From assembly GCA_963666985.2 (NCBI GenBank), contig CAXXIA010000002.1:1760001-1824000 (forward strand): a DNA stretch of 64,000 nt, in the 5' to 3' direction. Made by a program: the position numbers and the translations under genes. The first letter of the stretch is position 1. Each line of letters starts with the position of its first letter. Below are positions 19,209 to 62,717 of the stretch, piece after piece. The stretch comes from Spirochaetia bacterium. Its GTDB lineage: Bacteria > Spirochaetota > Spirochaetia > DSM-2461. Under the pieces are notes generated by a model that saw only the letters and a program-made list of their open reading frames with translations, was not told where the DNA came from and ran no database searches.

Positions 19209-19426
19209 TTATAACAGCTGTTGATGCGCTCCGGCCGCTAAAAGTGTTTAGCGGCCTCCGGGGCTTCGCCCAAATTTCGTTTTGGCATGGCGTCTTGCAG
19301 ATGCAGATCCAGAAGTGATGTGATACAGTCAAAGGCGAACATGGTGTTGCTGTAGAAGAGCAAGAGCACATGCCAACCGGCTTTCAGCCGGACACGAAAC
19401 GTTCGCATAACAGCGGGCCGTTAATT
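19209..19426 (+). repeat. attC: attC-like site 1 (type A, 218 bp)
   Basis: AACAGCTGTTGATGCG...CGCATAACAGCGGGCCGTT. Confidence 0.85.
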
Positions 19427-19468
19427 GCAATATCGAGGACTCCGTTTTATAGAAAGGAGTTGAATGAC

Positions 19469-20203
19469 GTGAAAAACAAAATCTTGATCGCTTCAATAAT
19501 AGCAGTTCTATGTTTCCCTTTTGTGATCTATCTAACTAGATTTCCTGGACTATACTCTGCTAACTCGGTGGAATGGGGAATCTTCGGAACGTTTATTGGT
19601 GGACTACTATCATCAATTTTCGCTGGTTTGAGTTTTATTGTAGTCTTACTTGTATATTGGCGCTCAAATGAGGATAGAAAGAATCGAGAGTCGCGCGAAA
19701 CAGTTCTTAAACTGCTGGAAGAGCTAAGTAATAGATATAAGAAAATTGTGATTAGAATTGAAGATACTGCTCAGATCGGAGAAATGGTATTTTCCTATTT
19801 TAATAGTAGTGCTTTTCAGCTTTATAAATTGTACCAAGACTATCTTAAAAACAAAGAAAATGAAAACCTTAAGGGACAGGTTAAGGCGCAAGCCTTACAG
19901 ATGGTCTTCTCAATCAATACAATACGCGAGTATCTACGATTTGTTGTTCTTACTTATCGATACATTGTGAATAAGTCAATTGAGAAAGAATTTCTTTCAA
20001 TACTATCAGCAAGACTTACAGAACAAGAGATGATAGCTCTTTCTATTTTGTTGTATGACGAAATTGAAGCTGATGACAATTTGTTTAGCTATTTAAAGAA
20101 TATGAAATACGGACCAATCGAAGGCTATGCTGCAATCGGAAGAAGTCTTACAGATGCCTTAAAGCTGAATTCTCCGGAACTACCATCAAATTTGAGTTTA
20201 TGA
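19469..20203 (+). CDS. Membrane protein, putative abortive-infection (putAbiC-like) family (cassette 2)
   Basis: Two TM segments with WGIFGTFIGG motif; C-terminal ILSARLTEQE; AAGGAG RBS before GTG. Confidence 0.55.
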   Translation: MKNKILIASIIAVLCFPFVIYLTRFPGLYSANSVEWGIFGTFIGGLLSSIFAGLSFIVVLLVYWRSNEDRKNRESRETVLKLLEELSNRYKKIVIRIEDTAQIGEMVFSYFNSSAFQLYKLYQDYLKNKENENLKGQVKAQALQMVFSINTIREYLRFVVLTYRYIVNKSIEKEFLSILSARLTEQEMIALSILLYDEIEADDNLFSYLKNMKYGPIEGYAAIGRSLTDALKLNSPELPSNLSL

Positions 20204-20268
20204 TTAGGAATTATTGATTTACATGGAGAAGCGAGAATAATTGCTGGTTAGAAATGAAACGATACTGC

Positions 20269-20476
20269 AATTAACAGCTGTTGATGCGCTCCGGCCGCTA
20301 AAAGTGTTTAGCGGCCTCCGGGGCTTCGCCCAAATTTGCCTCTGTCATAGATTTTGCGAATGTCTGGCACTGTGGTAAGATGAGTTGCGGTTAGCGGTTG
20401 AGGTTGTGAAGAATCGCAAAATCTCCGCCAGTCGCTACGCGAACGGCAAACTTCGCATACCAGCGGACCGTTATTT
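20269..20476 (+). repeat. attC: attC-like site 2 (type B, 208 bp)
   Basis: Conserved termini; TTTGCC...AGATTTTGCG...CGCAAAATCT...GGCAAA arms. Confidence 0.85.
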
Positions 20477-20530
20477 GCAAGAATGAATGACGATTTCTCC
20501 TCGCCCATCCATGGGCTCGGTGGTTAGAAG

Positions 20531-21760
20531 ATGTCAAAATATAAGAAACGAGACAAATACCAGCAGCTATATGAGTTTTTAAAAGCAAAAGAAAGCAGAT
20601 CCGAGTCATTCACTGTTGAAGAAATAATAACCGCGACAGGTTATCAAGAAGGATCCGTAAAGGCATATATTCGAAACAAGCTCAATAATGTTTATCTATT
20701 CTTAATAGATGATAGTCACTATCAAGTTTCAGGAATTGCATCAAAGACACCTGATGATTTTGAATCGATTATGTCGCAAAAAAGCGATTTGGTTGTGTCA
20801 GACTCAGAAAGCCTATTTACAAGCCTTAGGGATCGTAGTCTTCAAGCGTTTTATACTGCAATATCTGTATATAACAATCCCTTGCATGAATATAGGATAG
20901 AATCCTTTTGTATTCTTTTATCAAATGCATGGGAACTTTTACTCAAGGCTAGAATTGTTCAACTGGAAGGTGAAGATAAAATATACAAATCAAAAGGGAA
21001 GACAATTTCGTTAACAGAAGCCTATCGTAAAGTCTTTCCACGTTCATCTGATCCTATTCACAAAAACTTAGAAACACTTACCGAGATTCGAGATTCAGCA
21101 GTACATCTACTTATTCCGGATATTCAACATTCTTTATCTCGTATATTTCAAGCTAGCATTTTTAATTTTCTTTCAAAGGTAAGAGAATACAAATATCCAA
21201 ATAAGTACCATAGCGATTTACCAGGTCTCTTATCTTTTGTTACAGATAAACAAGACGTTCCTGAAAATGTAATACGTCTAAAGTATGGAACCTATGCAAG
21301 TGGACTAATAAAAGAATTTATTGAAAAGAATACCTCACGCGAATCCGAAGTTTCCGATATGCGTTATTCAATACCAATCGACTACAAGGTAGTTCTGACA
21401 AAAAGTGAAAAGGAAGGAGATTTATCTATCCGTATAGATAAGGATGGAGAACCCGCCATACTGGTAGAAAAACCCAAGGATGTTAATAAAACGCATCCCT
21501 ATCTTCAGAAAAATGTAATAGAAGCCGTGAATCAAGGTCTCGATGATGTCGGTCGGTCTCAATACCATCTCAACCGATATTCGTTTCGTGGAGCTCTCGA
21601 AGTTGAAAAAGTTAGGAGAACACAATCCAATAAATTCTATCATTTATTAGAAAATCCGGAAGTTCATAAGTACTCACAAGCATTTATAGATCTTCTTCTC
21701 CACAAACTTTCAAACAGTGATAGTTACCTACAGTTGTGTAAAAAAGCTTTGAAAAAATAG
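20531..21760 (+). CDS. DUF3644-type (HEPN-like) protein (cassette 3)
   Basis: YNNP...RIESFCILLSNAWELLLKA and RDSAVH (RxxxxH). Confidence 0.7.
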   Translation: MSKYKKRDKYQQLYEFLKAKESRSESFTVEEIITATGYQEGSVKAYIRNKLNNVYLFLIDDSHYQVSGIASKTPDDFESIMSQKSDLVVSDSESLFTSLRDRSLQAFYTAISVYNNPLHEYRIESFCILLSNAWELLLKARIVQLEGEDKIYKSKGKTISLTEAYRKVFPRSSDPIHKNLETLTEIRDSAVHLLIPDIQHSLSRIFQASIFNFLSKVREYKYPNKYHSDLPGLLSFVTDKQDVPENVIRLKYGTYASGLIKEFIEKNTSRESEVSDMRYSIPIDYKVVLTKSEKEGDLSIRIDKDGEPAILVEKPKDVNKTHPYLQKNVIEAVNQGLDDVGRSQYHLNRYSFRGALEVEKVRRTQSNKFYHLLENPEVHKYSQAFIDLLLHKLSNSDSYLQLCKKALKK

Positions 21761-21821
21761 AAGTGGCCTGAAAGTACATCCTTGTACTTTCAGGGAGACT
21801 TATCCATCTCGTCATTCCTGC

Positions 21822-22039
21822 AAATAACAGCTGTTGATGCGCTTCGAATACATTTGCAGGCAAATGTATTCTCCGGGCCTTCGGCCAAATTTCGTTTTGG
21901 CATGGCATCTTGCAGATGCGTTTTCGAAAGTGATGTGATACAGTCAAAGGAGAACATGGCATTGCGTTAGAAGGGCAAGAGCGCATGCCAACCGGCTTCG
22001 CCGGACACGAAACGTTCGCATAACAGCGGGCCGTTTGGC
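21822..22039 (+). repeat. attC: attC-like site 3 (type A)
   Basis: Conserved termini; variant first hairpin GAATACATTTGC/GCAAATGTATTC. Confidence 0.85.
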
Positions 22040-22096
22040 GAAATCTGTTTTAGAAAAATATTTTTTTGCCTCACCTTCCATGGTTCGGCTTTGTTC

Positions 22097-22381
22097 TCAC
22101 CTGTAGGCGCTACTTCGGGGTTCGAGAGAAATAATACTGACAATTCTAACGGCGTCATCGATTACATAGAAAAGTCTATAGTTACCAATTCGATACCGCC
22201 ACGTTTCTGGTTTCCAGTCTTTCAACTTTTTGATGTTTTTTCCGAAATAGGGGTTTTTGCGTAATTGGTCGTAGACCATGCCTGAAATCTTTCTGTATTG
22301 TGATGAACTTCCATTCATTCGTAGCTTTTTTAGATCTTTAAGAAATTGATCCGTTTCAAAAATTTTAAATCGTTCAGACAA
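22097..22381 (-). CDS. RelE/ParE family toxin (cassette 4)
   Basis: WRYRIGNYRLFY motif; overlaps antitoxin. Confidence 0.88.
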   Translation of the reverse strand: MSERFKIFETDQFLKDLKKLRMNGSSSQYRKISGMVYDQLRKNPYFGKNIKKLKDWKPETWRYRIGNYRLFYVIDDAVRIVSIISLEPRSSAYR

Positions 22382-22613
22382 ATCGACCTCTACCGTTCTT
22401 AGCGTCTTTGGTTCCCTGCTTCATTCGTTTTAAAAGGCTTTCATCAGAGAGGATGCTTTCCATTTCGAAATCGTCGGCATATTCAACCTCTTCGATGTAT
22501 CTCATTGTTGCAGTCTCGATAAAATTTGAAATCGAACGATTCTCAGCATCGGCATGGACTTTTAAGGAATCGTAGAGTTCTTCATCAATTCGTAGAGAAA
22601 CAGTTTTGGTCAT
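22374..22613 (-). CDS. Ribbon-helix-helix antitoxin (cassette 4)
   Basis: KTVSLRIDEELY...ENRSISNFI; acidic C-terminus. Confidence 0.85.
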   Translation of the reverse strand: MTKTVSLRIDEELYDSLKVHADAENRSISNFIETATMRYIEEVEYADDFEMESILSDESLLKRMKQGTKDAKNGRGRFV

Positions 22614-22755
22614 ATCATTATCCCCTCTATGAATACATTGTATTCATATGTGTTTAAATTAGTTCATAGCGTTATTGAAGTCAATAGGGCGATTTTAGAG
22701 GTCTCCCAAGTACATCCTTGTACTTGGAAGAGTGGTAAAACACCAAACAGACTTC

Positions 22756-23027
22756 GCCAAACAGCTGTTGATGCGCGGCGGCCGCTAATGGGATTAGCGG
22801 CCTTGGGCCGAGCGATGGAAAACCAAGAGCTTTTAAATTTCTGTTGAAGGGAAAAATCAAATTGGTTCGGCTCGGCCAAATTTCGCTTTGGCCATGGTTC
22901 TTGCAGATGCGTTTCTAAAAGTGGTGTGATAAGCTGAAGAGCGAACGGGCTTTCTGTTAAAGTGCAAGAACGCATGCCAACCGGCTTCGCCGGACGCGAA
23001 ACTTCGCATACCAGCGGAACGTTTAAC
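22756..23027 (+). repeat. attC: attC-like site 4 (type A with extra arm, 272 bp)
   Basis: Conserved termini; inserted GGCCGAGC...GCTCGGCC arm. Confidence 0.85.
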
Positions 23028-23155
23028 GAAAAAATCAGAAGGCCTTTTCCATGCCGCCTTTCTTGGTGCCATGAATAGGAATATTCAATTTCCTAAAAGA
23101 ATTAATGGTAATAATGTATAGTTAGTAATCCTGTAGTGATAACGAAGAGTAGAAA

Positions 23156-23860
23156 ATGGAAAACATAATCAAAATACTCGGTGAGCATCCAACTGCTGTT
23201 ATTGCAGATGCTGCTTTTAAGATTGGAGCAACAGTTCGTCTTCTTCCTTCAAATCTATACTCTCTTAAGCCAGATGCACGATTAATCGGTAAAGTTACAA
23301 CCGTTAAATGCAATAACGATTTGGTCTCTATTCTCGAGGGGCTTATGCGTGCAGAGAGTGGAGATGTTTTACTAATCGACAATAATGGTTTCTCAGGGGC
23401 AGGTTGTATCGGAGATGTCATCGTTTCGGAAGCTGTTCGTAAGAAAATCTCTGGGATTGTTGTCTATGGATCCATTAGAGATAGCCAGCAAATCTCTACG
23501 ATGGAAATTTCTGTGTTCTGTACTGGAAAATGTTCTGTTGGGCCATTGAAGCTACCTGGGCAGCAGTCGAAAAATGGTCTTGTTAACGTAGTCTTGGAAA
23601 TAGAGGGAACTTCTATAAAACCTGGAGATATTCTTATTGGCGATGTTGATGGTGTAATTGTTGTAGAAACCGATCGCCTTGATGAAATTATTAGCAAAGC
23701 AGAAGAAATTGAACATAAAGAAGAGACTTTAATGAAAAGAATCGAGTCAGGAGAAAGTCTTACAGACATATTTGGGGTTAAGAAGTTCTTAGAGAAAAGA
23801 GAAGGGGATCCAGAGTATTTATTCAATTCTCATTTGGCAGAACAGAATGAAACGATTTGA
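23156..23860 (+). CDS. RraA family protein (HMG aldolase-like) (cassette 5)
   Basis: GDVLLID, GCIGDV, GSIRD, PGDILIGDVDGV. Confidence 0.88.
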   Translation: MENIIKILGEHPTAVIADAAFKIGATVRLLPSNLYSLKPDARLIGKVTTVKCNNDLVSILEGLMRAESGDVLLIDNNGFSGAGCIGDVIVSEAVRKKISGIVVYGSIRDSQQISTMEISVFCTGKCSVGPLKLPGQQSKNGLVNVVLEIEGTSIKPGDILIGDVDGVIVVETDRLDEIISKAEEIEHKEETLMKRIESGESLTDIFGVKKFLEKREGDPEYLFNSHLAEQNETI

Positions 23861-23931
23861 TTCAGTGAAAGGTGAGCCAATAAGTGATTAGATAGAGGTA
23901 TTTTCTATTTGGCATTTTTAGGGATTTCTTC

Positions 23932-24208
23932 GTTAAACAGCTGTTGATGCGCGTCGGCCGCTAAAGGTGTTTAGCGGCCTTGGGCCGAGCGATGGGTATT
24001 GGTTAAGTTTTATTATTTTTGAAGAAGAAGAGAAAATCAGATTGAATCGGCTCGGCCAAATTTCGCTTTGTCATGGCTCTTGCAGATGCGTTTCCGAAAG
24101 TGATGTGATACCATCAAAGGCGAACAATGAATTGCTGTAGAAGAGCAAGAGCGCATGCCAACCGGCTTCGCCGGCCGCGAAACTTCGCATACCAGCGGGC
24201 CGTTAAAG
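23932..24208 (+). repeat. attC: attC-like site 5 (type A with extra arm, 277 bp)
   Basis: Conserved termini; extra GGCCGAGC/GCTCGGCC arm. Confidence 0.85.
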
Positions 24209-25047
24209 GAAATTCGGACGACGGAATAAAAAAGGTCTCTTTTTTGAGGGTTTTTTTCTGTGGCAGCCTCATTCCCTTCATTTGAACAAGTAACAAAAAC
24301 AGAATCCCTTTGAGTGTTCAGATTTTTTTAACAGGCCTTCCTTCTCTTTGAACGAAACAGGTCGTTTTCATACGGCTTTCTCCTCACCCCCCTCGCCTTT
24401 GAGATCATCTTCAAGAAAGAAACCAAAAGCATCGGAATAAAACTCGCTTCGGGATCAGAAGCACTTAGTGATAAGGCGGTCGGTTCGGGAGAACTTGTGT
24501 CGTGAAGGTTTATGGTTTTTAACGATTATGGGAATCGCTCATGAGAAAATCCTTATCCGTTGATGGCTATCGCTTCGGGAAATGAGGCGCTTCCGGTTTG
24601 ATCGGTTCGCGAGAAAAGGGGTGGTAGCCTGAGAAGAATGAAGGGATGGAGATGAGAAGAATGGAGATTGTTTTCTCCGTAGTTTTGCCTTTGAGAATAA
24701 GGCTGAATGCTTTAAGAGAATACCGGTGTAGAAGGAGAAGACGAACATTCGGATTTACAGAATCCGTCCTGAGAGAAAGAGGTCGGGAAAGGCGAATTGC
24801 ATCGGATGAAGGCCTGAGTAAAGTGATGAGGCGATGAAAGGGAGAATAGGGGTCAGTACGAGAGAATGGATAGAAATTCCGTTAAATGAGTAAAAAGCGG
24901 AAGAGGGAAGTCTGTAAAAGGATGAATGAAGAAAAGATGAGAAGGAGAAGGGCAAGAAGAATCGAAACAAAGGGTCCGGCAAAACGGCGAGGAGGGGTGA
25001 GGAGAAGGAGAGGTCTTTATAGATGCGTCGTCCGAACTTCCTTTAAC
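24203..25047. other. Gene-less cassette 6 (about 840 bp body)
   Basis: 22-bp terminal inverted repeat; only short low-complexity ORFs. Confidence 0.7.
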
Positions 25048-25248
25048 AGCTGTTGATGCGCTTCGGCCGCTAAAGGTGTTTAGCGGCCTGCGGGGCTTCG
25101 CCCAAATTTGCCTCTGTCATAGATTTTGCTTAAGTCTGTCGCTATGGTAAGATGAGTTGTAGTTAGCGGTTGATGTTGTGAAGATTCGCAAAATCTCCGC
25201 CAGTCGCTACGCGAACGGCAAACTTCGCATACCAGCGGGCCGTTATGT
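25041..25248 (+). repeat. attC: attC-like site 6 (type B)
   Basis: Conserved termini and arms. Confidence 0.85.
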
Positions 25249-25298
25249 GCTTTTTCGTTTTTCCAGTTAATAACATTAATTGCCATAAGGAGGGAGAA

Positions 25299-25751
25299 AT
25301 GGGCATCAATTATCAATTAAAAGCAGAAAAAGGCAAAATCGAAGATGAATTAAATTCCGCAATTAACAGGCTTATTTCTGGCTGCGAAAAGCTTGATATG
25401 GCTTTAGCTTTCGAAATCTTCTCAGATTCATCTGAGTTCTTGATGATGGGAACGGATGGAAGCCTTTGTGATTATCAGACTTACTTGAAAAACAATATCG
25501 ACTATTTATCCGGTTGTGAAAGTTTTAAGTTGATAACGTTTGATCGAAAAATACGAATCATAAACAGTGAGGTAGCCATCTTTTCATGGGCTTATGGGGT
25601 TGAGGCAAAATTAAGAACGGGAGATATTGATATTATTGATAATGCAGGAGCTTCTTTTGTCTTCCGAAAAATAGAGAATACATGGAAGGTTGTATATTAT
25701 CATGAGTCATCAGTACCTCCGAAAAGAAACTCTCCACCAAGAGAATCATGA
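25299..25751 (+). CDS. NTF2/SnoaL-like protein (cassette 7)
   Basis: C-terminal FVFRKIENTWKVVYYHES; AAGGAGG RBS. Confidence 0.8.
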   Translation: MGINYQLKAEKGKIEDELNSAINRLISGCEKLDMALAFEIFSDSSEFLMMGTDGSLCDYQTYLKNNIDYLSGCESFKLITFDRKIRIINSEVAIFSWAYGVEAKLRTGDIDIIDNAGASFVFRKIENTWKVVYYHESSVPPKRNSPPRES

Positions 25752-25845
25752 CGATTGAAATCCAAGTGTAAATAAGGGATTACACAGAACGTCGCGCAAG
25801 TATCGCTTTCTGTTGCTGTTTATAGTTATGTCGGAATCAGAATAT

Positions 25846-26334
25846 ATGGAAAATAAAATAGTAATAGATAAAAAAATCCAGCCGGGCGATTTGGGCTCTA
25901 TAGTGGAATTGCATGGCAAATATTACAGCAAGCATTTTGGCTATAACATAACCTTTGAACCATATGTTGCTTTACCTCTTGCGAAGTTTATACTTCGGGC
26001 CAGTGAGAATGAACAGATTTGGATAGTTCGACAAAACGGAATCGTTCGGGGGAGTATCGCTATTGCGAAGAAGAAAGCAAAAACTGCGCAGTTGAGATGG
26101 TTTATCCTTGATGGAAGTCTCCAAGGAAAAGGCATTGGAAATCAACTAATGAGATTCTCTATTGATTTTGCAAGAGAAAAAGGATTTTACAAGCTGATTC
26201 TCTGGACGGTAAGGGATCTAAAAAGTGCGATTCATCTGTACGAAAAGAATCTTTTTTTGCTTAAGAAAGAAGTTTCCCACAAGATTTGGGGGGTGGAATT
26301 GACGGAACAACTCTATGAATTGAAGTTGAAATAG
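25846..26334 (+). CDS. GNAT N-acetyltransferase (cassette 7)
   Basis: AQLRWF...QGKGIG, AIHLYEK. Confidence 0.88.
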   Translation: MENKIVIDKKIQPGDLGSIVELHGKYYSKHFGYNITFEPYVALPLAKFILRASENEQIWIVRQNGIVRGSIAIAKKKAKTAQLRWFILDGSLQGKGIGNQLMRFSIDFAREKGFYKLILWTVRDLKSAIHLYEKNLFLLKKEVSHKIWGVELTEQLYELKLK

Positions 26335-26400
26335 GGTTAATTCCGAATACTCTGTTTAAGAAGATGAACTCTCAATAAAGATAGATATGAGGGAAAAAGC

Positions 26401-26609
26401 ACATAACAGCTGTTGATGCGCTCCGGCCGCTAAATAGTGTTTAGCGGCCTTCGGGGCTTCGCCCAAATTTGCCTCTGTCACAGATTTTGCGAATGTCTGG
26501 TGTTGTGGTAAGATGATTTGCAGTTGACGGTTAATGTTGTGAAGAATCGCAAAATCTCTGCCAGTCGCTGCGCGAACGGCAAACTTCGCATACCAGCGGG
26601 CCGTTAAGT
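26401..26609 (+). repeat. attC: attC-like site 7 (type B)
   Basis: Conserved termini and arms. Confidence 0.85.
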
Positions 26610-26841
26610 GTATTATTGGAGGCATTTTGAAGAAATTATGGATTCTGTTTCTTTTTCCATTTCTTCTGGGATGTGTGACTCGTGCAGATGAAAAGTATAA
26701 AGGAACTATCTACGATCCTGGTATTGAGGAACCCATATCGTTGCATCCCTTTTACTTCTCACATGCACTTGCAGAGGCAATTTGGAATTCCCAGCTTTTG
26801 ATAGACACTGCTAAACTCAAAATGAGGAAGGAGTGTACATC

Positions 26842-27129
26842 ATGGGAAGTCCGCGATATTCGGACGAATTCAAGGCAGAAGCAGTCGGCCAGGTTGTTGA
26901 GCGGGGCTACTCCATCAAGGAAGTCTCTGAGCGTATAGGAGTCTCAACCCATAGCCTCTATAAGTGGCTGAAGGCCGATTCTCGAAATCCAAAAGCACCA
27001 GAATCGGCAAAAGCAAATAAGGAGCTTGAAGTCGAGAATGCCAGGCTGAAAGCAGAGCTGCGGCGGGTGCAGGAAGAGCGAGATATCTTAAAAAAAGCCG
27101 CGGCATACTTCGCGAGTCAGTCCGAGTAA
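26842..27129 (+). CDS. IS3-family transposase OrfA
   Basis: YSDEFKAEAV HTH; ILKKAAAYF. Confidence 0.9.
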   Translation: MGSPRYSDEFKAEAVGQVVERGYSIKEVSERIGVSTHSLYKWLKADSRNPKAPESAKANKELEVENARLKAELRRVQEERDILKKAAAYFASQSE

Positions 27130-27167
27130 GATATGCCTTCATCAAAAACTACAGGGCTGAATTCAGA

Positions 27168-27986
27168 GTGAAGACTATGTGCCGGGTTCTCGATGTCAAT
27201 CGAAGCGGATTCTATGCATGGTTGAGAAAACCTCAATCAGAGAGAAAGATTGAAGACATTCGGTTGTTGAAGAAGATTCGCCACTTCTACGAAGAAAGCG
27301 ATCAGGTCTACGGAAGTCCACGAATCCATGAGGATTTGATGGAAGACGGAGAATCCTGCAGCGTCCATCGAGTAGCCAGAATCATGCGAGAGCATGGTAT
27401 CAGGGCGATGGTCGGCTTCAAGATGCGTCGATTCAAGTATGGAAAACCGTCCCAGGCTGCCCCGAACCATCTCCAGCAGGACTTTAATGTAGAAGAACCC
27501 GATACTGCGTGGACAACGGATATTACCTATATTCGAACTCATGAAGGTTGGCTGTATCTCGCAGTTGTCATGGATCTTTATTCCAGGAGAATCATCGGCT
27601 GGTCCATGCAGAACACGCTTCATCGTGATCTGGTTATCCAGGCCTTACTGACAGCTGTTTGGAAGAGACGCCCGAAAAACAAAGTCCTTATCCATTCCGA
27701 TCAGGGCGGCCAATTTGACAGCGGTGACTGGATTAGATTCTGTCGTGACAACGGACTGAAGAGAAGTATGAGCCGTCGTGGAAACTGCTGGGACAATGCA
27801 GCCATGGAATCATTCTTTGGTAGTTTGAAGAAGGAACGGATTCGCCGGAAGACATATCGAACAAGGGATGAAGCACGGTCTGATGTGTTCGATTATATTG
27901 AAGCATTTTACAACCGGAAGCGTCGCCACAAGCATCTTGGCGGGATCTCTCCGGTTGAATTTGAAAAGGGTTCTATTGCAAGCTAG
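27168..27986 (+). CDS. IS3-family transposase OrfB (DDE)
   Basis: WTTDITY, HSDQG, DNAAMESFF. Confidence 0.92.
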   Translation: MKTMCRVLDVNRSGFYAWLRKPQSERKIEDIRLLKKIRHFYEESDQVYGSPRIHEDLMEDGESCSVHRVARIMREHGIRAMVGFKMRRFKYGKPSQAAPNHLQQDFNVEEPDTAWTTDITYIRTHEGWLYLAVVMDLYSRRIIGWSMQNTLHRDLVIQALLTAVWKRRPKNKVLIHSDQGGQFDSGDWIRFCRDNGLKRSMSRRGNCWDNAAMESFFGSLKKERIRRKTYRTRDEARSDVFDYIEAFYNRKRRHKHLGGISPVEFEKGSIAS

Positions 27987-28335
27987 AGGTGTCTATAGAA
28001 GTCTGGGAATTCCAATTCATCTTAATTTCAATTTTCCAGATGCGTTTACTACGAAAGATATTGCTGAGTTGTATGGAAGACTCTACTATCACGCGCAGAA
28101 TGTTGAGGGTGTAACTATCCAAATAGATTCATACCCAGAAAAGCGAAGTCTTTTTATTAATATGAAACCAATTGTAATAGAAAACTATAGGCAATTTGGT
28201 AAAAGAGATAAGCTTGAATCACTTGGATACTTCTTTTGGTTCAATGTTGAGCAAGATCGCACACTAAAAGGAAAATATGTACCAGTGAACCACCCCGGCT
28301 TTACCGGAGGCACAATTACTTGAGAGGATTGTGTC

Positions 28336-28656
28336 ATGGGAAAGCAAACAAGGTACCCCAAGGAAGTCCGGGAACAATCTGTCCGGATGGTGTTTGAGAA
28401 GCAGAAGGACAGCGAATCTCAGTGGTCGGCGATTTGTTCAATATCCGCTAAGATCGGCTGTACACCCGAAACACTCCGGAAATGGGTTCGGCAGGCAGAA
28501 ATCGATGAAGGGCAGCGGGATGGTCTAACCAGTGAAGAGCGTAAGCGTCTTAAAGAGCTGGAAAAGGAGAATCGAGAACTTCGTACTGCCAACGAAATTC
28601 TTCGAAAGGCCTCAGCGTATTTTGCCCAGGCGGAGCTCGACCGCCGAAAGAACTGA
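28336..28656 (+). CDS. IS3-family transposase OrfA
   Basis: KIGCTPETLRKWV; YFAQAELDRR. Confidence 0.9.
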   Translation: MGKQTRYPKEVREQSVRMVFEKQKDSESQWSAICSISAKIGCTPETLRKWVRQAEIDEGQRDGLTSEERKRLKELEKENRELRTANEILRKASAYFAQAELDRRKN

Positions 28657-29567
28657 TGGTCGGTTTTATCAATGAGAACCGGGAAGAATATGGAGTCGAG
28701 CCTATCTGCAAATCACTGCCGATTGCTCCGTCGACCTATCATCTACAAAAAGCAAGAGAAGCTGATCCTGAACTCGAACCTGATCGAACACGTCGAGACC
28801 GGTTTCTTAAAAATGAGATTCAGGAGATATGGGATGAGAACCGTAGAGTCTACGGCGCCAGGAAAGTCTGGAAGGTTCTTAGAAATGAGAAGCATCTCCA
28901 TGTAGCCAGGTGTACCGTCGAACGTCTTATGCGTTCTATGGGTCTCAGAGGCGTCATTCGGGGCAAGGGAACCAAGACCACCTTCCCGTCACCGAAAGAT
29001 GAAAGACCCGAGGATCTGGTTAACAGAGATTTCACAGCTTCCAAGCCGAATCGGCTTTGGGTTGCGGATTTCACCTACGTTTCCACCTGGCAGGGCTTCG
29101 TCTATGTTGCCTTCATCATTGATGTCTTCTCCCGGATGATCGTCGGTTGGCGAGCTAGCCGGTCGATGAAAACCGACTTTACTCTTGATGCGCTCAATCA
29201 GGCGCTTTGGGCCAGGGAAGTAGTCGACGGTCTGATTCATCACAGTGATCGTGGAAGGCAGTATCTTTCGTTTCGATATTCGGATCGATTGACAGAGGCC
29301 GGTATCGAGCCTTCGGTTGGGAGCAAAGGAGACTCGTACGATAACGCAATGGCTGAGACTATCAACGGTCTCTACAAAGCCGAAGTCATCCACCGGAGGA
29401 GCTCATGGCAGAGAATAGAACAGGTTGAATTGGAAACCCTGGACTGGGTGGACTGGTACAACAACCGCCGAATCATGGAGCCGCTTGGAGATATCCCCCC
29501 GGCGAAGTTTGAATCGATGTATTATGAACAGGAAGAATGTTCGGCAGTAGCTGCCGGACTCAACTAA
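28656..29567 (+). CDS. IS3-family transposase OrfB (DDE)
   Basis: WVADFTY, HHSDRG, YDNAMAETING. Confidence 0.92.
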   Translation: MVGFINENREEYGVEPICKSLPIAPSTYHLQKAREADPELEPDRTRRDRFLKNEIQEIWDENRRVYGARKVWKVLRNEKHLHVARCTVERLMRSMGLRGVIRGKGTKTTFPSPKDERPEDLVNRDFTASKPNRLWVADFTYVSTWQGFVYVAFIIDVFSRMIVGWRASRSMKTDFTLDALNQALWAREVVDGLIHHSDRGRQYLSFRYSDRLTEAGIEPSVGSKGDSYDNAMAETINGLYKAEVIHRRSSWQRIEQVELETLDWVDWYNNRRIMEPLGDIPPAKFESMYYEQEECSAVAAGLN

Positions 29568-30067
29568 AACAGCCTCCGGGAATCCCGGTGTGGTTCACAG
29601 AGATGTTTGCCCGAACAAATGTGATGACGGCAAATACTTCCTGCTATACGTATAAGTATTTAGAATCAGGTTCACTGTATCGGTATCGGTCTAATGTTGA
29701 TTATACGATTACTGAGTGGAATGACGATATGTTGAATGCTGAGAATTGCATATTTGATGGAATCCCCAATAATAATGAACTTGCTCTTAAGTATATAGCA
29801 ACCGCAATTAAAAGAGCTGAGGAGATACCGGAGTTACAAAGAGGAAGATATCTGTATATTGTTTTGTACGGTAAACTTCTAGAATGTGAGTATAATATTT
29901 TGGTTGGACAATTCGATGAAGCTAGAGAATTACTAGAAGAATCTATTCTTACATTTGAGGAAAATAGTGAAATTATACGCTATAAGGAAGTTATAAAAAA
30001 CTGTATTGAACACGCTGAGATCGTGTTATTGCTAACAGAATTTCTAATGCCATATTATCAATAATAC

Positions 30068-30279
30068 ACTTAACAGCTGTTGATGCGCTCCGGCCGCTAA
30101 AGGTGTTTAGCGGCCTTCGGGGCTCCGCCCAAATTTCGTTTTGGCGATGGCTCTTGCAGATGCGTTTTTAGAAGTTGTGTGATAAGTTGAAGAGCGAACA
30201 GGCTTTCTGCTAAAAGCAAGAGCACATGCCAACCGGCTACGCCGGACACGAAACTTCGCATACCAGCGGGCCGTTAGGT
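30068..30279 (+). repeat. attC: attC-like site 8 (type A)
   Basis: Conserved termini and arms. Confidence 0.85.
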
Positions 30280-30319
30280 GATTTGCAAATGAGATACAAT
30301 TAGATCAAAGGAGAGCGCC

Positions 30320-31456
30320 TTGGGCCCTGTAGTACTTCTGGATAAGTCTACCTACCAATGCCTCAGTTCTGATGAACTACTTTGTCTAGAAAGATACTAT
30401 TTCCTCAATTTGCCTCCAATACTCCTTTACGAAATAATTACAGATCTATCGAAAAAGTCTGGAAGAGATTCAGAAGAAGTTACTTCACGGCTTGCTGCAA
30501 AATTCACTCAAATGAGTAGTTACGCTAACGATGAGTATCGGATAGTACTCCGTTTATCACTTCTTGGAAGGCCGGTGCCAATGACACGTCAGGTTCTCAT
30601 TGCCGGTGGAGAGAAAATCAAAGACGAAGAAGGGAAGGTCGGGATTTTTCTAGATGAACCTCCTGAATTTAAGGCATTACGAGAATGGGAGAATAAAAAC
30701 TTTTCAGAGTTTGATAGAATCTTTGCAACAGCATTCAGAAAGTATAAAGATAGCTTCGATTTCGAATTGATTACGAAGAAAGATTCAGACTTCAAAAAAA
30801 TATGGAGCGAAGTCAATTCACTGGAAGATGCCCATGATAGCGCTGTTTTACATATTGATAACAAAGAGAATACAGCTCAGATGCTTGAATGGGCTATGTC
30901 GAGTATCAATCTCTCAAGCTTAGAGAAAAGTGCGGTTCGCAAACTGTGGAGTGTTAAAGGAAAACCGAATCTTTCTGACTTCTCACCTTATGCAAGATTT
31001 TGCATGATTGCGTCATTAACAGCGTTCATAGGAATCAGTAAAGGACTATTAGGCTCTAGGTCTTCAAACATGATAGATCTCGAATACCTTTATTATTTAC
31101 CTTTTTGCTCCATTTTTTCTTCAAATGACAAATTTCAACTACAACTAGCACCATTATTGATTGGAGATGATCAATACATCGTTTCGGGTGATGTTCTCAA
31201 AGATGATTTAGCAAAAATAATCACATATTTCTCAGGATTCACGAAAGAAGATCATGTTGCTTATCGAAAGCATAGAGGCAGCCACCCTCCTGAAATCGCA
31301 GACTCGTTTACTTTGAGTGTATGGGAGACGCTATGCTCGCCAGTAGATCCAGAGGCAGAAGAAAGGTTACAGAACACCCCACATGACGAGATTCTGAAGA
31401 AGATAAAGCCAATACTGGAAGCAATTAAGAAGCAAGAACAGAATCGGGGAAACTAG
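30320..31456 (+). CDS. Hypothetical protein, possibly PIN-like (cassette 9)
   Basis: 378-aa ORF with AAGGAG RBS; VLLDKS and IDLEYLYYLPFC..FSSND patterns. Confidence 0.65.
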   Translation: MGPVVLLDKSTYQCLSSDELLCLERYYFLNLPPILLYEIITDLSKKSGRDSEEVTSRLAAKFTQMSSYANDEYRIVLRLSLLGRPVPMTRQVLIAGGEKIKDEEGKVGIFLDEPPEFKALREWENKNFSEFDRIFATAFRKYKDSFDFELITKKDSDFKKIWSEVNSLEDAHDSAVLHIDNKENTAQMLEWAMSSINLSSLEKSAVRKLWSVKGKPNLSDFSPYARFCMIASLTAFIGISKGLLGSRSSNMIDLEYLYYLPFCSIFSSNDKFQLQLAPLLIGDDQYIVSGDVLKDDLAKIITYFSGFTKEDHVAYRKHRGSHPPEIADSFTLSVWETLCSPVDPEAEERLQNTPHDEILKKIKPILEAIKKQEQNRGN

Positions 31457-31473
31457 TTAAATACGAGCAAATC

Positions 31474-31682
31474 ACCTAACAGCTGTTGATGCGCTCCGGC
31501 GTCAACTTGCGTTGCCGCCTCCGGGGCTTCGCCCAAATTTGCCTCTGTCATAGATTTTGCGGAAGGCTGGCGGCTGTGATAGGATGGCTTTCAGTAATCG
31601 GCCGATGTTGTTCTGTCTGGCAAAATCTACACCAGTCGCCTTCGGCGAACGGCAAACTTCGCATAACAGCAGAACGTTTAAT
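31474..31682 (+). repeat. attC: attC-like site 9 (type B variant)
   Basis: Conserved termini; first hairpin GGCGTCAAC/GTTGCCGCC. Confidence 0.85.
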
Positions 31683-31806
31683 GAAAAAAAACAGAAGGCC
31701 CCTCAACAGTTCGGTATCCTGTTTCGCTAATAGGTTTCATTTAGTAGCTGAGAAATTAAGCAATTATGCAAAAAGATATATTTGTTAAAAAATTGCCGGA
31801 TACTAC

Positions 31807-32928: not shown

Positions 32929-33072
32929 ATTTTAAAATATACATGCTTGAAATCCATAACGATAGTAATTGATTTTACAAATACATGATTATCAGGCATC
33001 ACTTTAAATACTACTGAAGTTTATCGTGTGTTTTAGTAGATTTTTCGAGGGGGTAGATTTCTGTTTTTCTTC

Positions 33073-38255: not shown

Positions 38256-38274
38256 GAACTTCTGGAATTTGTCT

Positions 38275-49290: not shown

Positions 49291-49498
49291 ATAAAACAGC
49301 TGTTAATGCGCTCCGGCCGCTAAAAGTGTTTAGCGGCCTGCGGGGCTTCGCCCAAATTTGCCTCTGTCACAGATTTTGCGTAAGTCTGTCTCTGTGGTAA
49401 GATGAGTTACAGTTAGCGGTTGAGGTTGTGAATAATCGCAAAATCTCCGCCAGTCGCTTCGCGAACGGCAAACTTCGCATACCAGCGGAACGTTTAAC
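49291..49498 (+). repeat. attC: attC-like site 21 (type B)
   Basis: Conserved termini (CTGTTAATGCG variant). Confidence 0.85.
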
Positions 49499-49761
49499 GA
49501 AAAAGTCCAGGAGGCCATTCACCGTGGCGGCGTCCATGCCGCCACGAATTTGATCATTTAAATCGTCTAGAACCAATTTTTAGTTGAAGGGACAATAACT
49601 CTATATCTATTATCGTTGAGTGAAATAGCCATAAATCGAATTAATTGATAGTTCAGTTAAACCAACTACTACTTCTGAGATAGCTTCAAAAAGGAGTTCA
49701 CAGCAATGAAATACCTTCACTTAATATTTCCATTTATATTGGAAAAGGAAACGAATTAATT

Positions 49762-50655: not shown

Positions 50656-50868
50656 GTTAAACAGCTGTTGATGCGCTCCGGCGTCAACTGGCGTTGCCGC
50701 CTCCGGGGCTTCGCCCAAATTTCGCTTTGGCTATGGCTCTTGCAGATGCAGCCTCAAAAGTGTTGTGATACCATCAAAGGCGAGCAAGGCATTGCTGTAA
50801 AAGTGCAAGAGCGCATGCCAACCGGCTTCGCCGGGCGCGAAACTTCGCATAACAGCAGAACGTTAAAT
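50656..50868 (+). repeat. attC: attC-like site 22 (type A)
   Basis: Conserved termini and arms. Confidence 0.85.
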
Positions 50869-55525: not shown

Positions 55526-55733
55526 ATTTAACAGCTGTTGATGCGCTCCGGCGATAATCAGGGATTATCGCCTCCGGGCCTTCGGCCAAATTTGCCTCTG
55601 TCATAGATTTTGCGTAAGGCTGCTGTTGTGGTAAGATGAGTTGTAGTTTGCGGTTGAGGTTGTGAAGAATCGCAAAATCTCCGCCAGTCGCTTGAGCGAA
55701 CGGCAAACTTCGCATACCAGCGGGCCGTTTGGC
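55526..55733 (+). repeat. attC: attC-like site 23 (type B)
   Basis: Conserved termini; first hairpin GGCGATAATC/GATTATCGCC. Confidence 0.85.
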
Positions 55734-56803: not shown

Positions 56804-56814
56804 AAAGCAAGTTC

Positions 56815-57022
56815 GCCAAACAGCTGTTGATGCGCTCCGGCCGCTAAAAGTGTTTAGCGGCCTCCGGGGCTACGCCCAAATTTGCCTCTGTCATAGATTT
56901 TGCGTATGTCTGACGTTGTGGTAAGATGAGTTGCAGTTAGCGGTTAAGGTTGTGAAGAATCGCAAAATCTCCGCCAGTCGCTTTGCGAACGGCAAACTTC
57001 GCATACCAGCGGACCGTTTAAT
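56815..57022 (+). repeat. attC: attC-like site 24 (type B)
   Basis: Conserved termini and arms. Confidence 0.85.
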
Positions 57023-58333: not shown

Positions 58334-58548
58334 ATTAAACAGCTGTTGATGCGCTCCGAATACATTTGCATGCAAATGTATTCTCCGGGGCTTCGCCCAA
58401 ATTTCGCTTTGGCGATGGTTCTTGCAGATGCGTTCCTAGAAGTTGTGTGATAGGCTCAAATGCGAACAGGTTTTCCGTTGAAGTGCAAGAACGCATGCCA
58501 ACCGGCTACGCCGGCCGCGAAACTTCGCATACCAGCGGAACGTTATGT
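58334..58548 (+). repeat. attC: attC-like site 25 (type A)
   Basis: Conserved termini; first hairpin as in site 3. Confidence 0.85.
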
Positions 58549-59616: not shown

Positions 59617-59824
59617 ACATAACAGCTGTTGATGCGCTCCGGCCGCTAAAAGTGTTTAGCGGCCTCCGGGGCTTCGCCCAAATTTGCCTCTGTCATAGAT
59701 TTTGCGTAAGTCTGTCTCTGTGGTATTATAAGTTGCAGTTAGCGATTGAGATTGTAAAATTTCGCAAAATCTCCGCCAGTCGCTACGCGAACGGCAAACT
59801 TCGCATAACAGCGGGCCGTTTGAT
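59617..59824 (+). repeat. attC: attC-like site 26 (type B)
   Basis: Conserved termini and arms. Confidence 0.85.
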
Positions 59825-59842
59825 GAACTTTTCGCTTTGAAG

Positions 59843-61185
59843 TGAGCGACCAGGACATCCTTTACATTTTAGGTTCAGGACATCGTTTACACAAAACAAG
59901 CTTAAACGAAGCATTTGAATCCATCAACTGAAGGGAGAAAGGCATAGGTTTTCAAATCAATTTCTCCCAATCTGAGATTGTCAAACCATACGGTGAAGCT
60001 CTCATCCTCATTCTCCCGAAGTCCAACTTGGTATCCTGAAAAGACATAACTGACAAAGACTCTATGCCTGTCGATAGTAACGGCTCCCCGATTATTCACC
60101 ATTCTCACCAGATACCCGGCCGGGTAGATCACCTGAGGGATTCGAGGAGGGAAAGGCCGATTGGACTTTGTGTAAATACTTCCGGGAGTCTGCATTTTGA
60201 GAGCTTCATGCGGACGAACACTGTTGAATTGATTTCTCCAAACATCAAAGTGTGCCTGATGTTCTGAGAGGTTCCCTTGAATCTGTCCCTGCAATTCGCG
60301 TTTGATATCGGCATGCATTCTTTCATGCCCTCCGTTTTCACAAGGCCTTCCTGGAGTGATGCGATCAAGTTCAATTCCCAAGGCCAGCCACCAAACACTT
60401 AAGCGGGTGAGTCCGAGTAATCCCTTCATGGAAGCAAAGGGTGGTCCGTTATCGGAGCGGATTACCCGAGGGATTCCATAGAGAGAAAAGAGCTTTTCGA
60501 ACTCTGTTCTAACTTCTTGTGTGTCAGCCTTTTGGAGAGCTTTGATGGTGAAGATGTATTTGGAGTATTCATCCCGAACCGTCAGAGGTTCACACTTTTC
60601 ATTATCGGGAGTGTACCACCATCCTTTGAAGTCGACCGTCCAGATATCATTAGGGGCTTTGGCCTGCAGATGTGTTTGGATTCGGCTGCCTTTGGTCTGC
60701 TGCCGTTTCTTTCGATGATGAACCAGTCCTGCTTTATCAAGGATGCGTTTGACGGTGGTGAGGCTTGGGGGATTATTATGAGGATGGGTCTTCTGGTAGA
60801 TCTCGAGAATCTTTTTTGGCCCCCAGCTGGAGTTGTGCAACGTCTTGATCCGGATAATACCGCATATAACGTCTTCAGGCGTTTGGTTGGGGCTGCTGCG
60901 AGGTCTACGGGGTCGTTCCTTCAACCCGGCGAGCCCTTCCTGGATAAACCGGTTTTTCCATTTAAGGCCTGTCGGCCGGGAGATCCCGTACTCAGCACAG
61001 AGGTCTTTCATACAGACATGGGGATCCATGGCCTTGAGGGCGAACTCGAATTTGACGTCCATAATATTGGTCTCCTTCCACGGCATAACCAGCACCTCGA
61101 TAAGGGAAAGTGCTGATCATTTTAGTTCTTGTCGTGTAAAGGATGTCCTGGTACTCTCGTGTAAACGATGTCCTGAACCCGTACC
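59843..61185 (-). mobile_element. IS481-family element copy 3 (1343 bp)
   Basis: Same ends as copies 1 and 2; AAG(T) duplication. Confidence 0.9.
59902..61095 (-). CDS. IS481-family transposase
   Basis: Protein identical to 38334-39527. Confidence 0.9.
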   Translation of the reverse strand: MLVMPWKETNIMDVKFEFALKAMDPHVCMKDLCAEYGISRPTGLKWKNRFIQEGLAGLKERPRRPRSSPNQTPEDVICGIIRIKTLHNSSWGPKKILEIYQKTHPHNNPPSLTTVKRILDKAGLVHHRKKRQQTKGSRIQTHLQAKAPNDIWTVDFKGWWYTPDNEKCEPLTVRDEYSKYIFTIKALQKADTQEVRTEFEKLFSLYGIPRVIRSDNGPPFASMKGLLGLTRLSVWWLALGIELDRITPGRPCENGGHERMHADIKRELQGQIQGNLSEHQAHFDVWRNQFNSVRPHEALKMQTPGSIYTKSNRPFPPRIPQVIYPAGYLVRMVNNRGAVTIDRHRVFVSYVFSGYQVGLRENEDESFTVWFDNLRLGEIDLKTYAFLPSVDGFKCFV

Positions 61186-61269
61186 AAGTCGTTTTATCTT
61201 GTCTGAGTTAGAAGGAATGTTTTTCTTATTGTGAAAATGATATTTCTTATGCCAGCGAATCTATTCAAA

Positions 61270-61422
61270 TTATACGGTAATCATTTTTTGATTCTTTTTA
61301 AGAATCTTCGTTAAGGATTCTCCCCAGTATTTTACTTCAATTCCAACATCTTCAAGAAGAGCCGTAACTCCAAGTTGATCGGCGCAAGCCTTACACTCAG
61401 AAACCTTTGCACCATTCTTGCT
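61270..61422 (-). pseudogene. 3' fragment of a DsrE-like gene (cassette 27)
   Basis: Reads KNGAKVSECKACADQLGVTALLEDVGIEVKYWGESLTKILKKNQKMITV-stop with no start codon. Confidence 0.55.
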
Positions 61423-61802
61423 CAATTGCTACCCGATAGAATCATATTAATAATTCCTTCTTCAGTTTCGGGTATATCATAATCTCCAGTGAGTTTCCCA
61501 GGATAGTGATACGCAATCCCCTCTTTCTCATTTCTTTCGAGACAATCTAAAAGCTGTTCAGTGCTATTTTTCTTAATAAATCTGGCAAATGCTCTTATTC
61601 GTATTTTATCCAGCATACTTCCATTACATGGAAATTCATCGCATTCCCAACAACCATTGAGTTCTCTTTCTTTGCAACAGCGAAGATTTTTACACCATTC
61701 CTTATTTGCACAACCATCGTTACGGCATCCAAGACAATCTGCATTCTCACTGCAAACAGCACAACCAAGACCGCAATATGCAATGCCTTTTTGTCTATCC
61801 AT
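61422..61802 (-). CDS. DUF3795-type Cys-rich protein (cassette 27)
   Basis: AYCGLGCAVC, CLGC, CC, GCWECDEFPC. Confidence 0.8.
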   Translation of the reverse strand: MDRQKGIAYCGLGCAVCSENADCLGCRNDGCANKEWCKNLRCCKERELNGCWECDEFPCNGSMLDKIRIRAFARFIKKNSTEQLLDCLERNEKEGIAYHYPGKLTGDYDIPETEEGIINMILSGSN

Positions 61803-61830
61803 ACACTTTATCTCTTTTAAGAAATCTGAA

Positions 61831-62157
61831 TTATCGTAATTGACGATTCAACAAAATATCTTCAACATTTCTGCGTCCGTCCATGACGGCCATAATAAAA
61901 ATCTTTTGCTGTTCTACCCGGTAAATCACTCGCCATGGAGAGATAATAATCTCACGATATCGATAAACATTCAGATCCTTCAATTCGGGAACAACGCGTC
62001 CGTGTTGTGGGAAATCAGTCAGTCTGGATACTTCGGTTTCGATTTCATCAAGAATCTTACGAGCAATGCTGATTGAGTCTATTTTGATATACTCAATGAT
62101 TTCAAAGAGATCTTCACGGGCAGTTTTGGTCCAGAAAATCCGAAACGATTTAGGCAT
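61831..62157 (-). CDS. RelE/ParE family toxin (cassette 27)
   Basis: AREDL.EI.EYI, FPQHGRVVPEL, WRVIY, DGRR. Confidence 0.9.
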   Translation of the reverse strand: MPKSFRIFWTKTAREDLFEIIEYIKIDSISIARKILDEIETEVSRLTDFPQHGRVVPELKDLNVYRYREIIISPWRVIYRVEQQKIFIMAVMDGRRNVEDILLNRQLR

Positions 62158-62425
62158 TTTCTAAAAGGTTCCGAGCGTCTTGAAAGACAGAGGCATGTTC
62201 TACAAGTTCGTTGTTTTCGGTATCTCTTTCGCCTGCAGCCATAAGTTTAAGAATCCCAAGGCTATTTCTCATATCTTGATAAGACTTTGTATCCATAAGG
62301 ACAGCTTTCGCTTCACCATTTTGAGTTATCACAATAGGGCTATGAGTTTCATTAACGCGTTTGAGCGTATCGGCGGCATGAGTCTTGATATATGAAATTG
62401 GCTTAATATCTTCCGAAACATTCAT
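62150..62425 (-). CDS. Phd/YefM antitoxin (cassette 27)
   Basis: IKPISYIK, PIVITQNGEAKAVL. Confidence 0.9.
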   Translation of the reverse strand: MNVSEDIKPISYIKTHAADTLKRVNETHSPIVITQNGEAKAVLMDTKSYQDMRNSLGILKLMAAGERDTENNELVEHASVFQDARNLLENA

Positions 62426-62509
62426 AGTGTTCTCCCAACCTATCTAGTCTTTATATGTTACTCTAAAAAGACTGGCGAGGCAATGTGAGAGTGTGAGTAG
62501 GAAAAGTTC

Positions 62510-62717
62510 ATCAAACAGCTGTTGATGCGCTCCGGCCGCTAAAGGTGTTTAACGGCCTTCGGGGCTTCGCCCAAATTTGCCTCTGTCACAGATTTTGCGA
62601 GAGGCTAGGGCTGTGGTAAGATGAATGGGAGTAAGCGGATGAGGTTGTGAAGAATCGCAAAATCTCCGCCAGTCGCTTCGCGAGCGGCAAACTTCGCATA
62701 CCAGCAGAACGTTAAGT
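62510..62717 (+). repeat. attC: attC-like site 27 (type B)
   Basis: Conserved termini and arms. Confidence 0.85.

Follow-up and report, generated by a model that had tools for sequence, protein, structure and literature searches.

A stretch of 64,000 nucleotides from a Spirochaetia bacterium (assembly GCA_963666985.2, contig CAXXIA010000002.1, positions 1,760,001 to 1,824,000), referred to in its full length as the window, carries 27 attC-like cassette recombination sites, all on the + strand, 207–277 bp long and spanning window positions 19209–62717. Our analysis suggests that these are oversized attC-type sites with a multi-branched bottom-strand fold, in which a box in the largest loop is likely a sigma-70 promoter for the next cassette and the internal arms likely shield the recombination core. 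Based on sequence and predicted folding, we give this reading a probability of roughly 0.7. By sequence and computation, the cassette ends match, the stems covary and the box is conserved on one strand at the right spacing; the folding of the bottom strand is predicted.

According to the mechanism that we propose, the adjacent short recombinase would cut at G/TT. RNA polymerase would use the box in double-stranded DNA and start about 75–83 nt ahead of the next cassette, and in an excised circle the same start would lie before the cassette's own gene. The internal arms would keep the promoter cargo from disturbing the recombination core, and the left hairpins would be exchanged among copies through homologous recombination or gene conversion. 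Tentatively, and at slightly less than even odds, we extend this to a two-state site in a distinct spirochaete cassette system, which would act as a promoter for its neighbour when double-stranded and as a branched substrate when single-stranded. Its short recombinase, lacking the IntI insertion, would not need the canonical extrahelical base, and the array would be broadly expressed and re-wired with each shuffle, not silent.

Cassette recombination sites in the window

The 27 sites are listed below with the predicted -10 box of each (window coordinates). The anatomy is given for attC 2, which serves as the reference.

19209–19426, +, attC 1, type B, 218 bp, box 19324–19329
20269–20476, +, attC 2, type A, 208 bp, box 20376–20381
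20269–20275, +, attC 2, R''
20277–20288, +, attC 2, left arm of the core, unpaired G at 20283
20293–20316, +, attC 2, hairpin 1
20321–20331, +, attC 2, hairpin 2
20335–20340 with 20445–20450, +, attC 2, closing helix of the main arm
20354–20389, +, attC 2, predicted sigma-70 promoter: -35-like hexamer 20354–20359, TG 20373–20374, predicted +1 at 20389
20431–20444, +, attC 2, hairpin 3
20454–20464, +, attC 2, right arm of the core
20465–20469, +, attC 2, unpaired 5-nt spacer
20470–20476, +, attC 2, R'
21822–22039, +, attC 3, type B, box 21939–21944
22756–23027, +, attC 4, type B, long hairpin 2 at 22806–22877, box 22930–22935
23932–24208, +, attC 5, type B, long hairpin 2 at 23983–24057, box 24109–24114
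25041–25248, +, attC 6, type A, box 25148–25153
26401–26609, +, attC 7, type A, box 26509–26514
30068–30279, +, attC 8, type B, box 30183–30188
31474–31682, +, attC 9, type A, box 31580–31585
33073–33285, +, attC 10, type B, box 33188–33193
34671–34877, +, attC 11, type A, box 34776–34781
37549–37757, +, attC 12, type A, box 37655–37660
37987–38255, +, attC 13, type E, long hairpin 2 at 38039–38109, ends a gene-less 236-bp cassette, box 38161–38166
38067–38072, +, attC 13, second TG-extended box, within the long hairpin
40824–41035, +, attC 14, type B, box 40938–40943
41774–41986, +, attC 15, type B, box 41889–41894
42216–42485, +, attC 16, type E, long hairpin 2 at 42268–42339, gene-less cassette, box 42391–42396, second box 42297–42302
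43311–43521, +, attC 17, type B, box 43425–43430
44627–44834, +, attC 18, variant of type A, box 44733–44738
46696–46903, +, attC 19, unique arm, box 46809–46814
48178–48385, +, attC 20, type A, box 48285–48290
49291–49498, +, attC 21, type A, box 49398–49403
50656–50868, +, attC 22, type B, box 50769–50774
55526–55733, +, attC 23, type A, box 55632–55637
56815–57022, +, attC 24, type A, box 56922–56927
58334–58548, +, attC 25, type B, box 58451–58456
59617–59824, +, attC 26, type A, box 59724–59729
62510–62717, +, attC 27, type A, box 62617–62622

An integron-like array with matching cassette ends

The window covers part of a larger array in this 4.86 Mb genome, running on to C2:1,933,534. 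In total the array holds 87 attC-like sites, 83 found by the first search pattern plus four variants. The length is 199–277 bp in 84 of them, and the remaining three measure 137, 138 and 156 bp. The low-GC genes of the array include toxin-antitoxin, defence-like, acetyltransferase and unknown genes. At its head lie the following features.

17133–17966, -, tyrosine recombinase of 277 aa in the intI position, divergent from the array and lacking the IntI-specific insertion of about 43 aa
18040–18060, +, attI crossover region, G/TT cut between 18054 and 18055

The position of the crossover, 88 bp upstream of the recombinase start and with 87 co-oriented sites downstream, is fixed by a second copy of cassette 1 at another place in the array, which starts at exactly this base. 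The same duplicate ruled out our first placement of attI at 17972. The recombinase scored 220 bits in two pieces against the IntI profile TIGR02249, below the cut-off of 265, and its alignment to the Vibrio cholerae integrase VchIntIA (2A3V) shows the gap of about 43 aa. No full IntI above the TIGR02249 cut-off was found anywhere in the genome, which is 93% complete, and an integrase search of the GTDB contig collection returned no confirmed relative.

R' of one site and R'' of the next match over 7 bp in 75 of 82 neighbouring pairs, compared with 6% of random pairs. With the variant sites included, the match extends to about 15 bp: columns 12–14 agree in 94–97% of the 87 cassettes (27–42% at random), and column 11, usually a G-T pair on the bottom strand, agrees in only 36%. 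The cassettes thus end in cassette-specific terminal inverted repeats of about 15 bp, for example 19420–19436 with 20259–20275 in the window, and such repeats are also present in most of nine neighbouring site pairs from relatives. They would build an extended outer stem solely in the excised circle. Duplicated and reordered cassettes are a sign of past mobility only. DNA contigs compared with 17000–36900 gave junctions that could equally come from other repeat copies, and these were set aside. Since both dnaA and the minimum of GC skew are found at C2:1.708 Mb, it is the bottom strand that serves as leading-strand template. We regard the array as functioning in the manner of an integron, not as a classic example of one, as it departs from several canonical features: the recombinase lies below the IntI cut-off, the central spacer measures 1 x 5 nt and the identity of the unpaired base differs between sites.

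Bottom-strand fold and covariation

In the predicted bottom-strand fold the core stem opens to a junction of hairpin 1, hairpin 2 and the main arm, which carries hairpin 3 and ends in a loop of about 56–73 nt. For 26 of the 27 window sites, bottom-strand folding gave z scores of -1.7 to -6.1 against 30 shuffles each. Another 35 distinct sites were gathered from relatives and metagenomes. Of the 118 sites collected, a module parser using fixed offsets handled 110 and failed on eight. Covariation was scored on 33 pairs in 74 non-redundant sites; these derive from 84 sites below 90% identity, drawn from 116 of the 118, with nine long sites and one 145-bp site left aside.

Pairing holds in 96.1% of the cells of this set, compared with 83.3% in shuffles and 33–49% with slid partners. 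Double-sided changes occur in 19 pairs (12.4 in shuffles) and the covariation score is 0.309 (0.079 in shuffles), values that none of 500 shuffles reached. The number of further pair types, 40 as opposed to 36.5, was not significant (34/500 shuffles). The strong covariation survives a tree-based check, as true partners share 0.90–1.03 of their changes on a parsimony tree and mismatched partners 0.25–0.65. It includes the long-range helices: those closing 130–200 nt covary with changes on the same branches, and in the closing helix of the main arm all six pairs covary and 98.4% are paired. The core helix is 96.3% paired, with 5 of 11 pairs covarying. Among the parsed sites, the arms of distinct hairpin-1 alleles are 90% paired when matched to their own partner and 51% when matched across alleles; for closing-helix alleles the figures are 92% and 54%. 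The short junction linkers are conserved.

A first-pass annotation of this DNA had described some of this from the letters alone, and its examples bear inspection. All five arm pairs that it quoted for hairpin 1, unrelated in sequence yet pairing, were found in that kind of place, and the four pairs quoted for the main arm (TTTCG/CGAAA, TTTGCC/GGCAAA, TTCGTC/GACGAA and TTGAGC/GCTCAA) are visible, as is the switch from ATGCG/CGCAT to ATACG/CGTAT in sites 13 and 16. An optional arm of about 60 bp had been assigned to sites 4, 5, 13 and 16; the extra length is real, but it is no separate arm, being hairpin 2 lengthened from 11 to 71–75 nt. The statement that the interiors conserve structure rather than sequence finds no support in that wording, since the largest loop keeps a specific sequence motif. 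Sequence is well conserved too: the same hairpin-1 arm is common to 16 of the 27 window sites, and mean identity is 84% within type A and 82% within type B.

The AAC/GTT pair is present in 74 of 74 sites, a feature for which the search patterns selected. The unpaired central spacer is 1 nt on one side and 5 nt on the other in each of the 110 sites that were parsed, with the pairs on its flanks preserved. The single unpaired base on the top strand is G in 103 sites, C in 5, A in 1 and T in 1 of the 110, hence mostly C on the bottom strand. G-U combinations account for 12 of 2433 cells, and on the top strand 43 of the 74 distinct small hairpins are capped by a TNC triloop, equivalent to GNA on the bottom. 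GNA loops are known for their stability. The predicted pfold was higher for the bottom than for the top strand in 41 of 42 sites (42 of the 84 were analysed), with medians of 0.27 and 0.003. From the rare G-U, the TNC/GNA loops and the higher bottom-strand pfold, selection looks to act at the DNA level and on the bottom strand. An RNA-level explanation was set aside, as G-U is rare and the loops fit bottom-strand GNA. Searches against Rfam gave no match to the repeats. The sole match, an ordinary ALIL frameshift pseudoknot (window 28614–28730), lies in an IS3-type insertion sequence (IS) inside cassette 8.

A conserved promoter-like box in the main-arm loop

The motif TGnTAnnnT occurs on the top strand of 114 of 117 main-arm loops, including all 27 in the window, and never on the bottom strand; its frequency in shuffles is 9.8%. 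Grouped at 60% similarity, the loops form 21 families, and at 50% they form 14; the motif is found in every one. In motif-blind alignments, where median conservation is about 0.75 and a few further columns also exceed 0.9, the only invariant loop columns are positions of the motif: T, G, T and T in family A (n = 31, including three misfiled type-B-like loops) and, in family B (n = 38), the T at either end of the box. The 100% conservation in a motif-anchored table is circular, and we put the weight on the shuffles, the motif-blind alignments and the unanchored positions. In dissimilar loops the motif recurs at offsets of 15–33 while the flanking positions drift.

The extended -10 consensus of sigma-70 promoters is TGnTAnnnT, with a -35 element about 17 bp away and a purine start 6–8 nt downstream. 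Judged by its sequence, the attC loop box agrees with this description. A -35-like WTG is spaced by 17 nt in 45 and by 16 nt in 15 of 71 cases (60/71 together), and every other spacer occurs 0–3 times. A purine lies 8 nt after the box in 66 of 68 cases (background 0.58), preceded by a pyrimidine in 51; among 22 family representatives the purine is present in all and WTG in 17. The predicted start lies 74–83 nt before the crossover in 113 of 114 sites. Host tRNA genes carry TTGAC-16/18-TAnnnT at 29 of 48 loci, and eight of the attC hexamers recur among these. The host RpoD keeps the region-3.0 His and Glu.

The cassettes themselves were examined for promoters and terminators. Of 38 forward cassettes, 23 have leaders of at most 80 nt by crude start calls, and only 3 of these have a box of their own. 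Reverse cassettes have their own TG-extended box in 10 of 21 cases, compared with 4.7 ± 2.0 in shuffles (4/300) and 2 on the opposite strand. Hairpins 1 and 2 were considered as terminators and rejected, as a scan of 17900–37800 lists none built from hairpin 1 or 2 alone; a terminator search at cassette starts was nearly empty. Many reverse defence-like cassettes have a leader in common, in which a GC-rich hairpin lies some 30 nt past the crossover (for example at window 33279–33340, 34871–34930 and 49492–49550).

The box could instead serve recombination, and not gene expression, if melting of the loop by RNA polymerase, or the resulting supercoiling, helped this very long site to extrude from double-stranded DNA. 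Within the loop, the box and predicted +1 do sit where the main arm has its centre of symmetry, and the box is kept ahead of reverse cassettes too. In the available passages of the published work, long variable terminal structures (VTSs) lower extrusion-dependent recombination (PMC5027507), and a bottom strand on the leading-strand template, as in this array, limits the single-strand route (PMC5371416). However, the short, mostly boxless leaders of forward cassettes fit a need for expression, and short sites without a box were integrated (see below). We regard this role as quite improbable.

Long hairpin 2 was considered as the seat of a second promoter. It carries a TG-extended box in 5 of 17 cases and none on the bottom strand, and inspection showed no obvious association with the orientation of the cassettes. 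At least seven copies of a 236-bp cassette that has no gene and a long attC of type E (window 37751–38255 and 41980–42485) are present in the array, most of them with two TG-extended boxes.

Internal arms and folding of the core

Deleting the internal arms in silico left core folding unchanged, with a median predicted pfold of 0.27 for native sites and 0.28 with the interior removed; it was 0.27 when only the loop was shuffled and 0.10 when the whole interior was shuffled. As pfold falls on shuffling of the interior and is unchanged on its removal, the arms would appear in this model to cancel the folding cost of a long insert. The claim of the first-pass annotation that the branched fold is under selection is partly borne out, as the paired changes fit the predicted fold, but by these predictions the recombinogenic fold does not depend on the arms.

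Natural short sites are in line with this. The three in the same array (C2:1830940–1831076, 1920100–1920237 and 1926862–1927017; 137–156 bp) have neither the large loop nor the promoter box. They also lack the extrahelical base and have a core sequence of their own, and their matching cassette ends imply that they were integrated. A 145-bp site of a relative (L016:5728–5872) likewise has no loop and no box. At locus L011, a shorter site missed by the search pattern still keeps the box.

These sites bear on the possibility, implied by the first-pass annotation, that the branched fold itself is selected, its junction being recognised by the short recombinase or a host factor and the loop motif being incidental. 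The covarying long-range helices, above all the closing helix, would fit, as would the conserved junction linkers, the atypical recombinase and the atypical core with its 1 x 5 nt spacer and varying unpaired base. Nevertheless, we consider it unlikely: the three integrated short sites and the short relative do without the large loop, and a strand-specific promoter-like motif with -35 and +1 signals is left unexplained. Moreover, in the part of PMC2727003 available to us, deletion of the 65-bp branched VTS of the Vibrio cholerae repeat (VCR) changed recombination only 1.6- to 2.4-fold.

Several findings weigh against our preferred reading of a promoter-bearing loop insulated by arms. Regarding the promoter, a generic sigma-70 scan of 17900–37800 returns no entry for any of the 12 attC boxes there; the -35 element is weak, and the -10 frequently agrees at just 3–4 of 6 positions. 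The T at -15 is rare in host tRNA promoters (4/29), and TG is not enriched genome-wide over a GT control; only TRTG is (2.2 vs 0.35 per 10 kb). Among 68 unique cassettes, 21 open with a gene in reverse orientation and another 8 with an IS, so the predicted promoter would often fire antisense, and only 1 of 24 reverse cassettes was found to contain a terminator-like hairpin oriented against it. Of the 35 sites from relatives, three depart from the box at a single position, and one short site lacks the loop. The sites share ancestry, and the loop families are thus not independent. Regarding the arms, the predicted insulation is modest, as 21 of 42 shuffled interiors still had a pfold above 0.1 in what is an equilibrium prediction, and hairpin 1 is not needed for insulating the predicted promoter.

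Reassortment of modules

Reassortment was assessed in 66 unique cassettes with Cramer's V and four-gamete 2 x 2 tables. Hairpin 1 and the main arm are close to unlinked (V 0.47, p 0.08, 10 four-gamete tables), and hairpin 2 is partly linked to the main arm (V 0.43, p 0.004, one four-gamete table). The closing helix, main arm and hairpin 3 stay in fixed combination (V 0.82–1.00, no four-gamete table). The mixing of modules noted in the first-pass annotation is thus confined to hairpins 1 and 2 relative to the main arm, and the other three never reassort. Exchange between copies at shared junction tracts would be the simplest cause of the mixing.

Could the pairing itself be largely neutral, arising by template switching at quasi-palindromes and gene conversion among the approximately 87 copies, with the loop motif kept by shared ancestry? 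Template-switch correction of inverted repeats is an established process; hairpin-1 alleles differ wholesale and reassort, and copies within a type are 82–84% identical. However, the motif positions are invariant where flanks drift and recur at different offsets in dissimilar loops, helices 130–200 nt apart covary on the same branches, and a solo copy outside the array has lost its hairpin pairing together with the last T of the box (one case). As a general account we find neutrality very improbable; it may hold for hairpin 1 alone.

Relatives, remnants and insertion sequences

Of 13 same-genus genomes, 6 contained related sites, whereas the 47 other relatives searched had none. Named records with the pattern belong to Spirochaetaceae, including Candidatus Marispirochaeta associata, and to one Desulfobulbaceae bin. 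The latter record (L013) contains one site of the family, near-identical to a site in metagenome locus L041, which may reflect transfer or mis-binning. A 16-base pattern with one mismatch, tried across the family, gave mostly chance matches and was dropped. A second short recombinase stands divergent, ahead of the same kind of site, in L011/L049. The gene at L021:212–1030, for a short tyrosine recombinase, follows a co-oriented attC at a distance of about 100 bp and lies behind a small hairpin; in this position it would be transcribed from the attC box.

Remnants of attC, solo or truncated, are located outside the array or at its end (C2:876450–876715 on the - strand, C2:2674167, C1:803983 on the - strand and C2:1935710). 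In one outside the array the stems have decayed and the box is broken by loss of its last T.

An IS with an rve transposase of 397 aa, which we take to be IS481-like, occurs in the window at 38270–39617, from 50884 and at 59840–61185, with more copies along C2:1.81–1.94 Mb. In nine places of the array (10 with the query copy) it lies 15–20 nt past the end of an attC and always faces backwards, whatever the local sequence, which looks like position-specific targeting. Three copies lie elsewhere in the genome.

Significance and comparison with known systems

In the standard model integron cassettes are promoterless and served by one platform promoter, and distal cassettes are silent unless they bring their own. 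If true, a promoter in every attC would mean that expression is set by the upstream neighbour and not by the distance from attI. Such a promoter would also account for the large size that the variable attC interior, dispensable for recombination in the VCR experiment, can reach. With sites up to twice the published length and a recombinase that fails the IntI profile, arrays of this kind would probably escape standard integron searches. Ready-made controls exist in the natural variants, both the loop-less and the long ones.

Structural covariation alone is ordinary attC biology, and branched, sequence-variable attC interiors are already known; the unexpected part is the length of the sites and the cargo in the loop. 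The published range of attC length is 57–141 bp, compared with 199–277 bp in 84 of our 87 sites. Canonical attC sites have an unpaired spacer of 5–6 nt per arm, an extrahelical G in L'' and a second such base, whereas here the spacer is 1 x 5 nt and there is one unpaired base, C on the bottom strand, which varies and is absent in the three short sites.

The following comparisons draw on those passages of the cited papers that were available. Vibrio cholerae VCRs have a branched variable terminal structure (PMC2727003, PMC5027507, PMC5371416), GAA loops on the bottom strand are known in attC sites (PMC5027507), and large sedentary integrons have the bottom strand on the leading-strand template (PMC5371416). 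Our sites resemble VCRs and other attC sites of sedentary chromosomal integrons in their RYYYAAC/GTTRRRY-type ends, invariant AAC/GTT and near-identical species-specific repeats. They share with VCRs the branched interior, bottom-strand preference, GAA-type bottom loops and the bottom strand on the leading-strand template. Unlike VCRs, they have cassette ends complementary over about 15 bp and a conserved promoter-like box in the loop.

In the literature search, which left most subscription papers outside, we found no description of a promoter as a fixed part of the attC loop, or of an attC above 200 bp, and the passages returned from a cassette-expression review and a gene-less cassette study mention no attC-internal promoter. 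The nearest published case is Vibrio sp. DAT722, where a sigma-70-type promoter overlapping attC transcribes the next cassette, with about 40-fold more transcript downstream (PMC2945992). There, as far as described, one promoter acts at one junction, whereas here the predicted box is fixed in 114 of 117 loops from several genomes. In Vibrionaceae superintegrons, promoter-bearing gene-less cassettes are reported to re-start transcription in long arrays (bioRxiv 10.1101/2023.11.21.568050). Gene-less 236-bp cassettes recur in our array too, but the Vibrionaceae promoters reside in special cassettes, and the box predicted here lies within the attC of every ordinary cassette. Finally, Treponema chromosomal integrons, with attC sites of 63–132 bp and intI transcribed towards the cassettes (PMC3607928), are similar in their spirochaete host, long arrays and attC length classes within a genome. 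The present array differs from them, on what those passages give, in its short divergent recombinase and its much longer sites.

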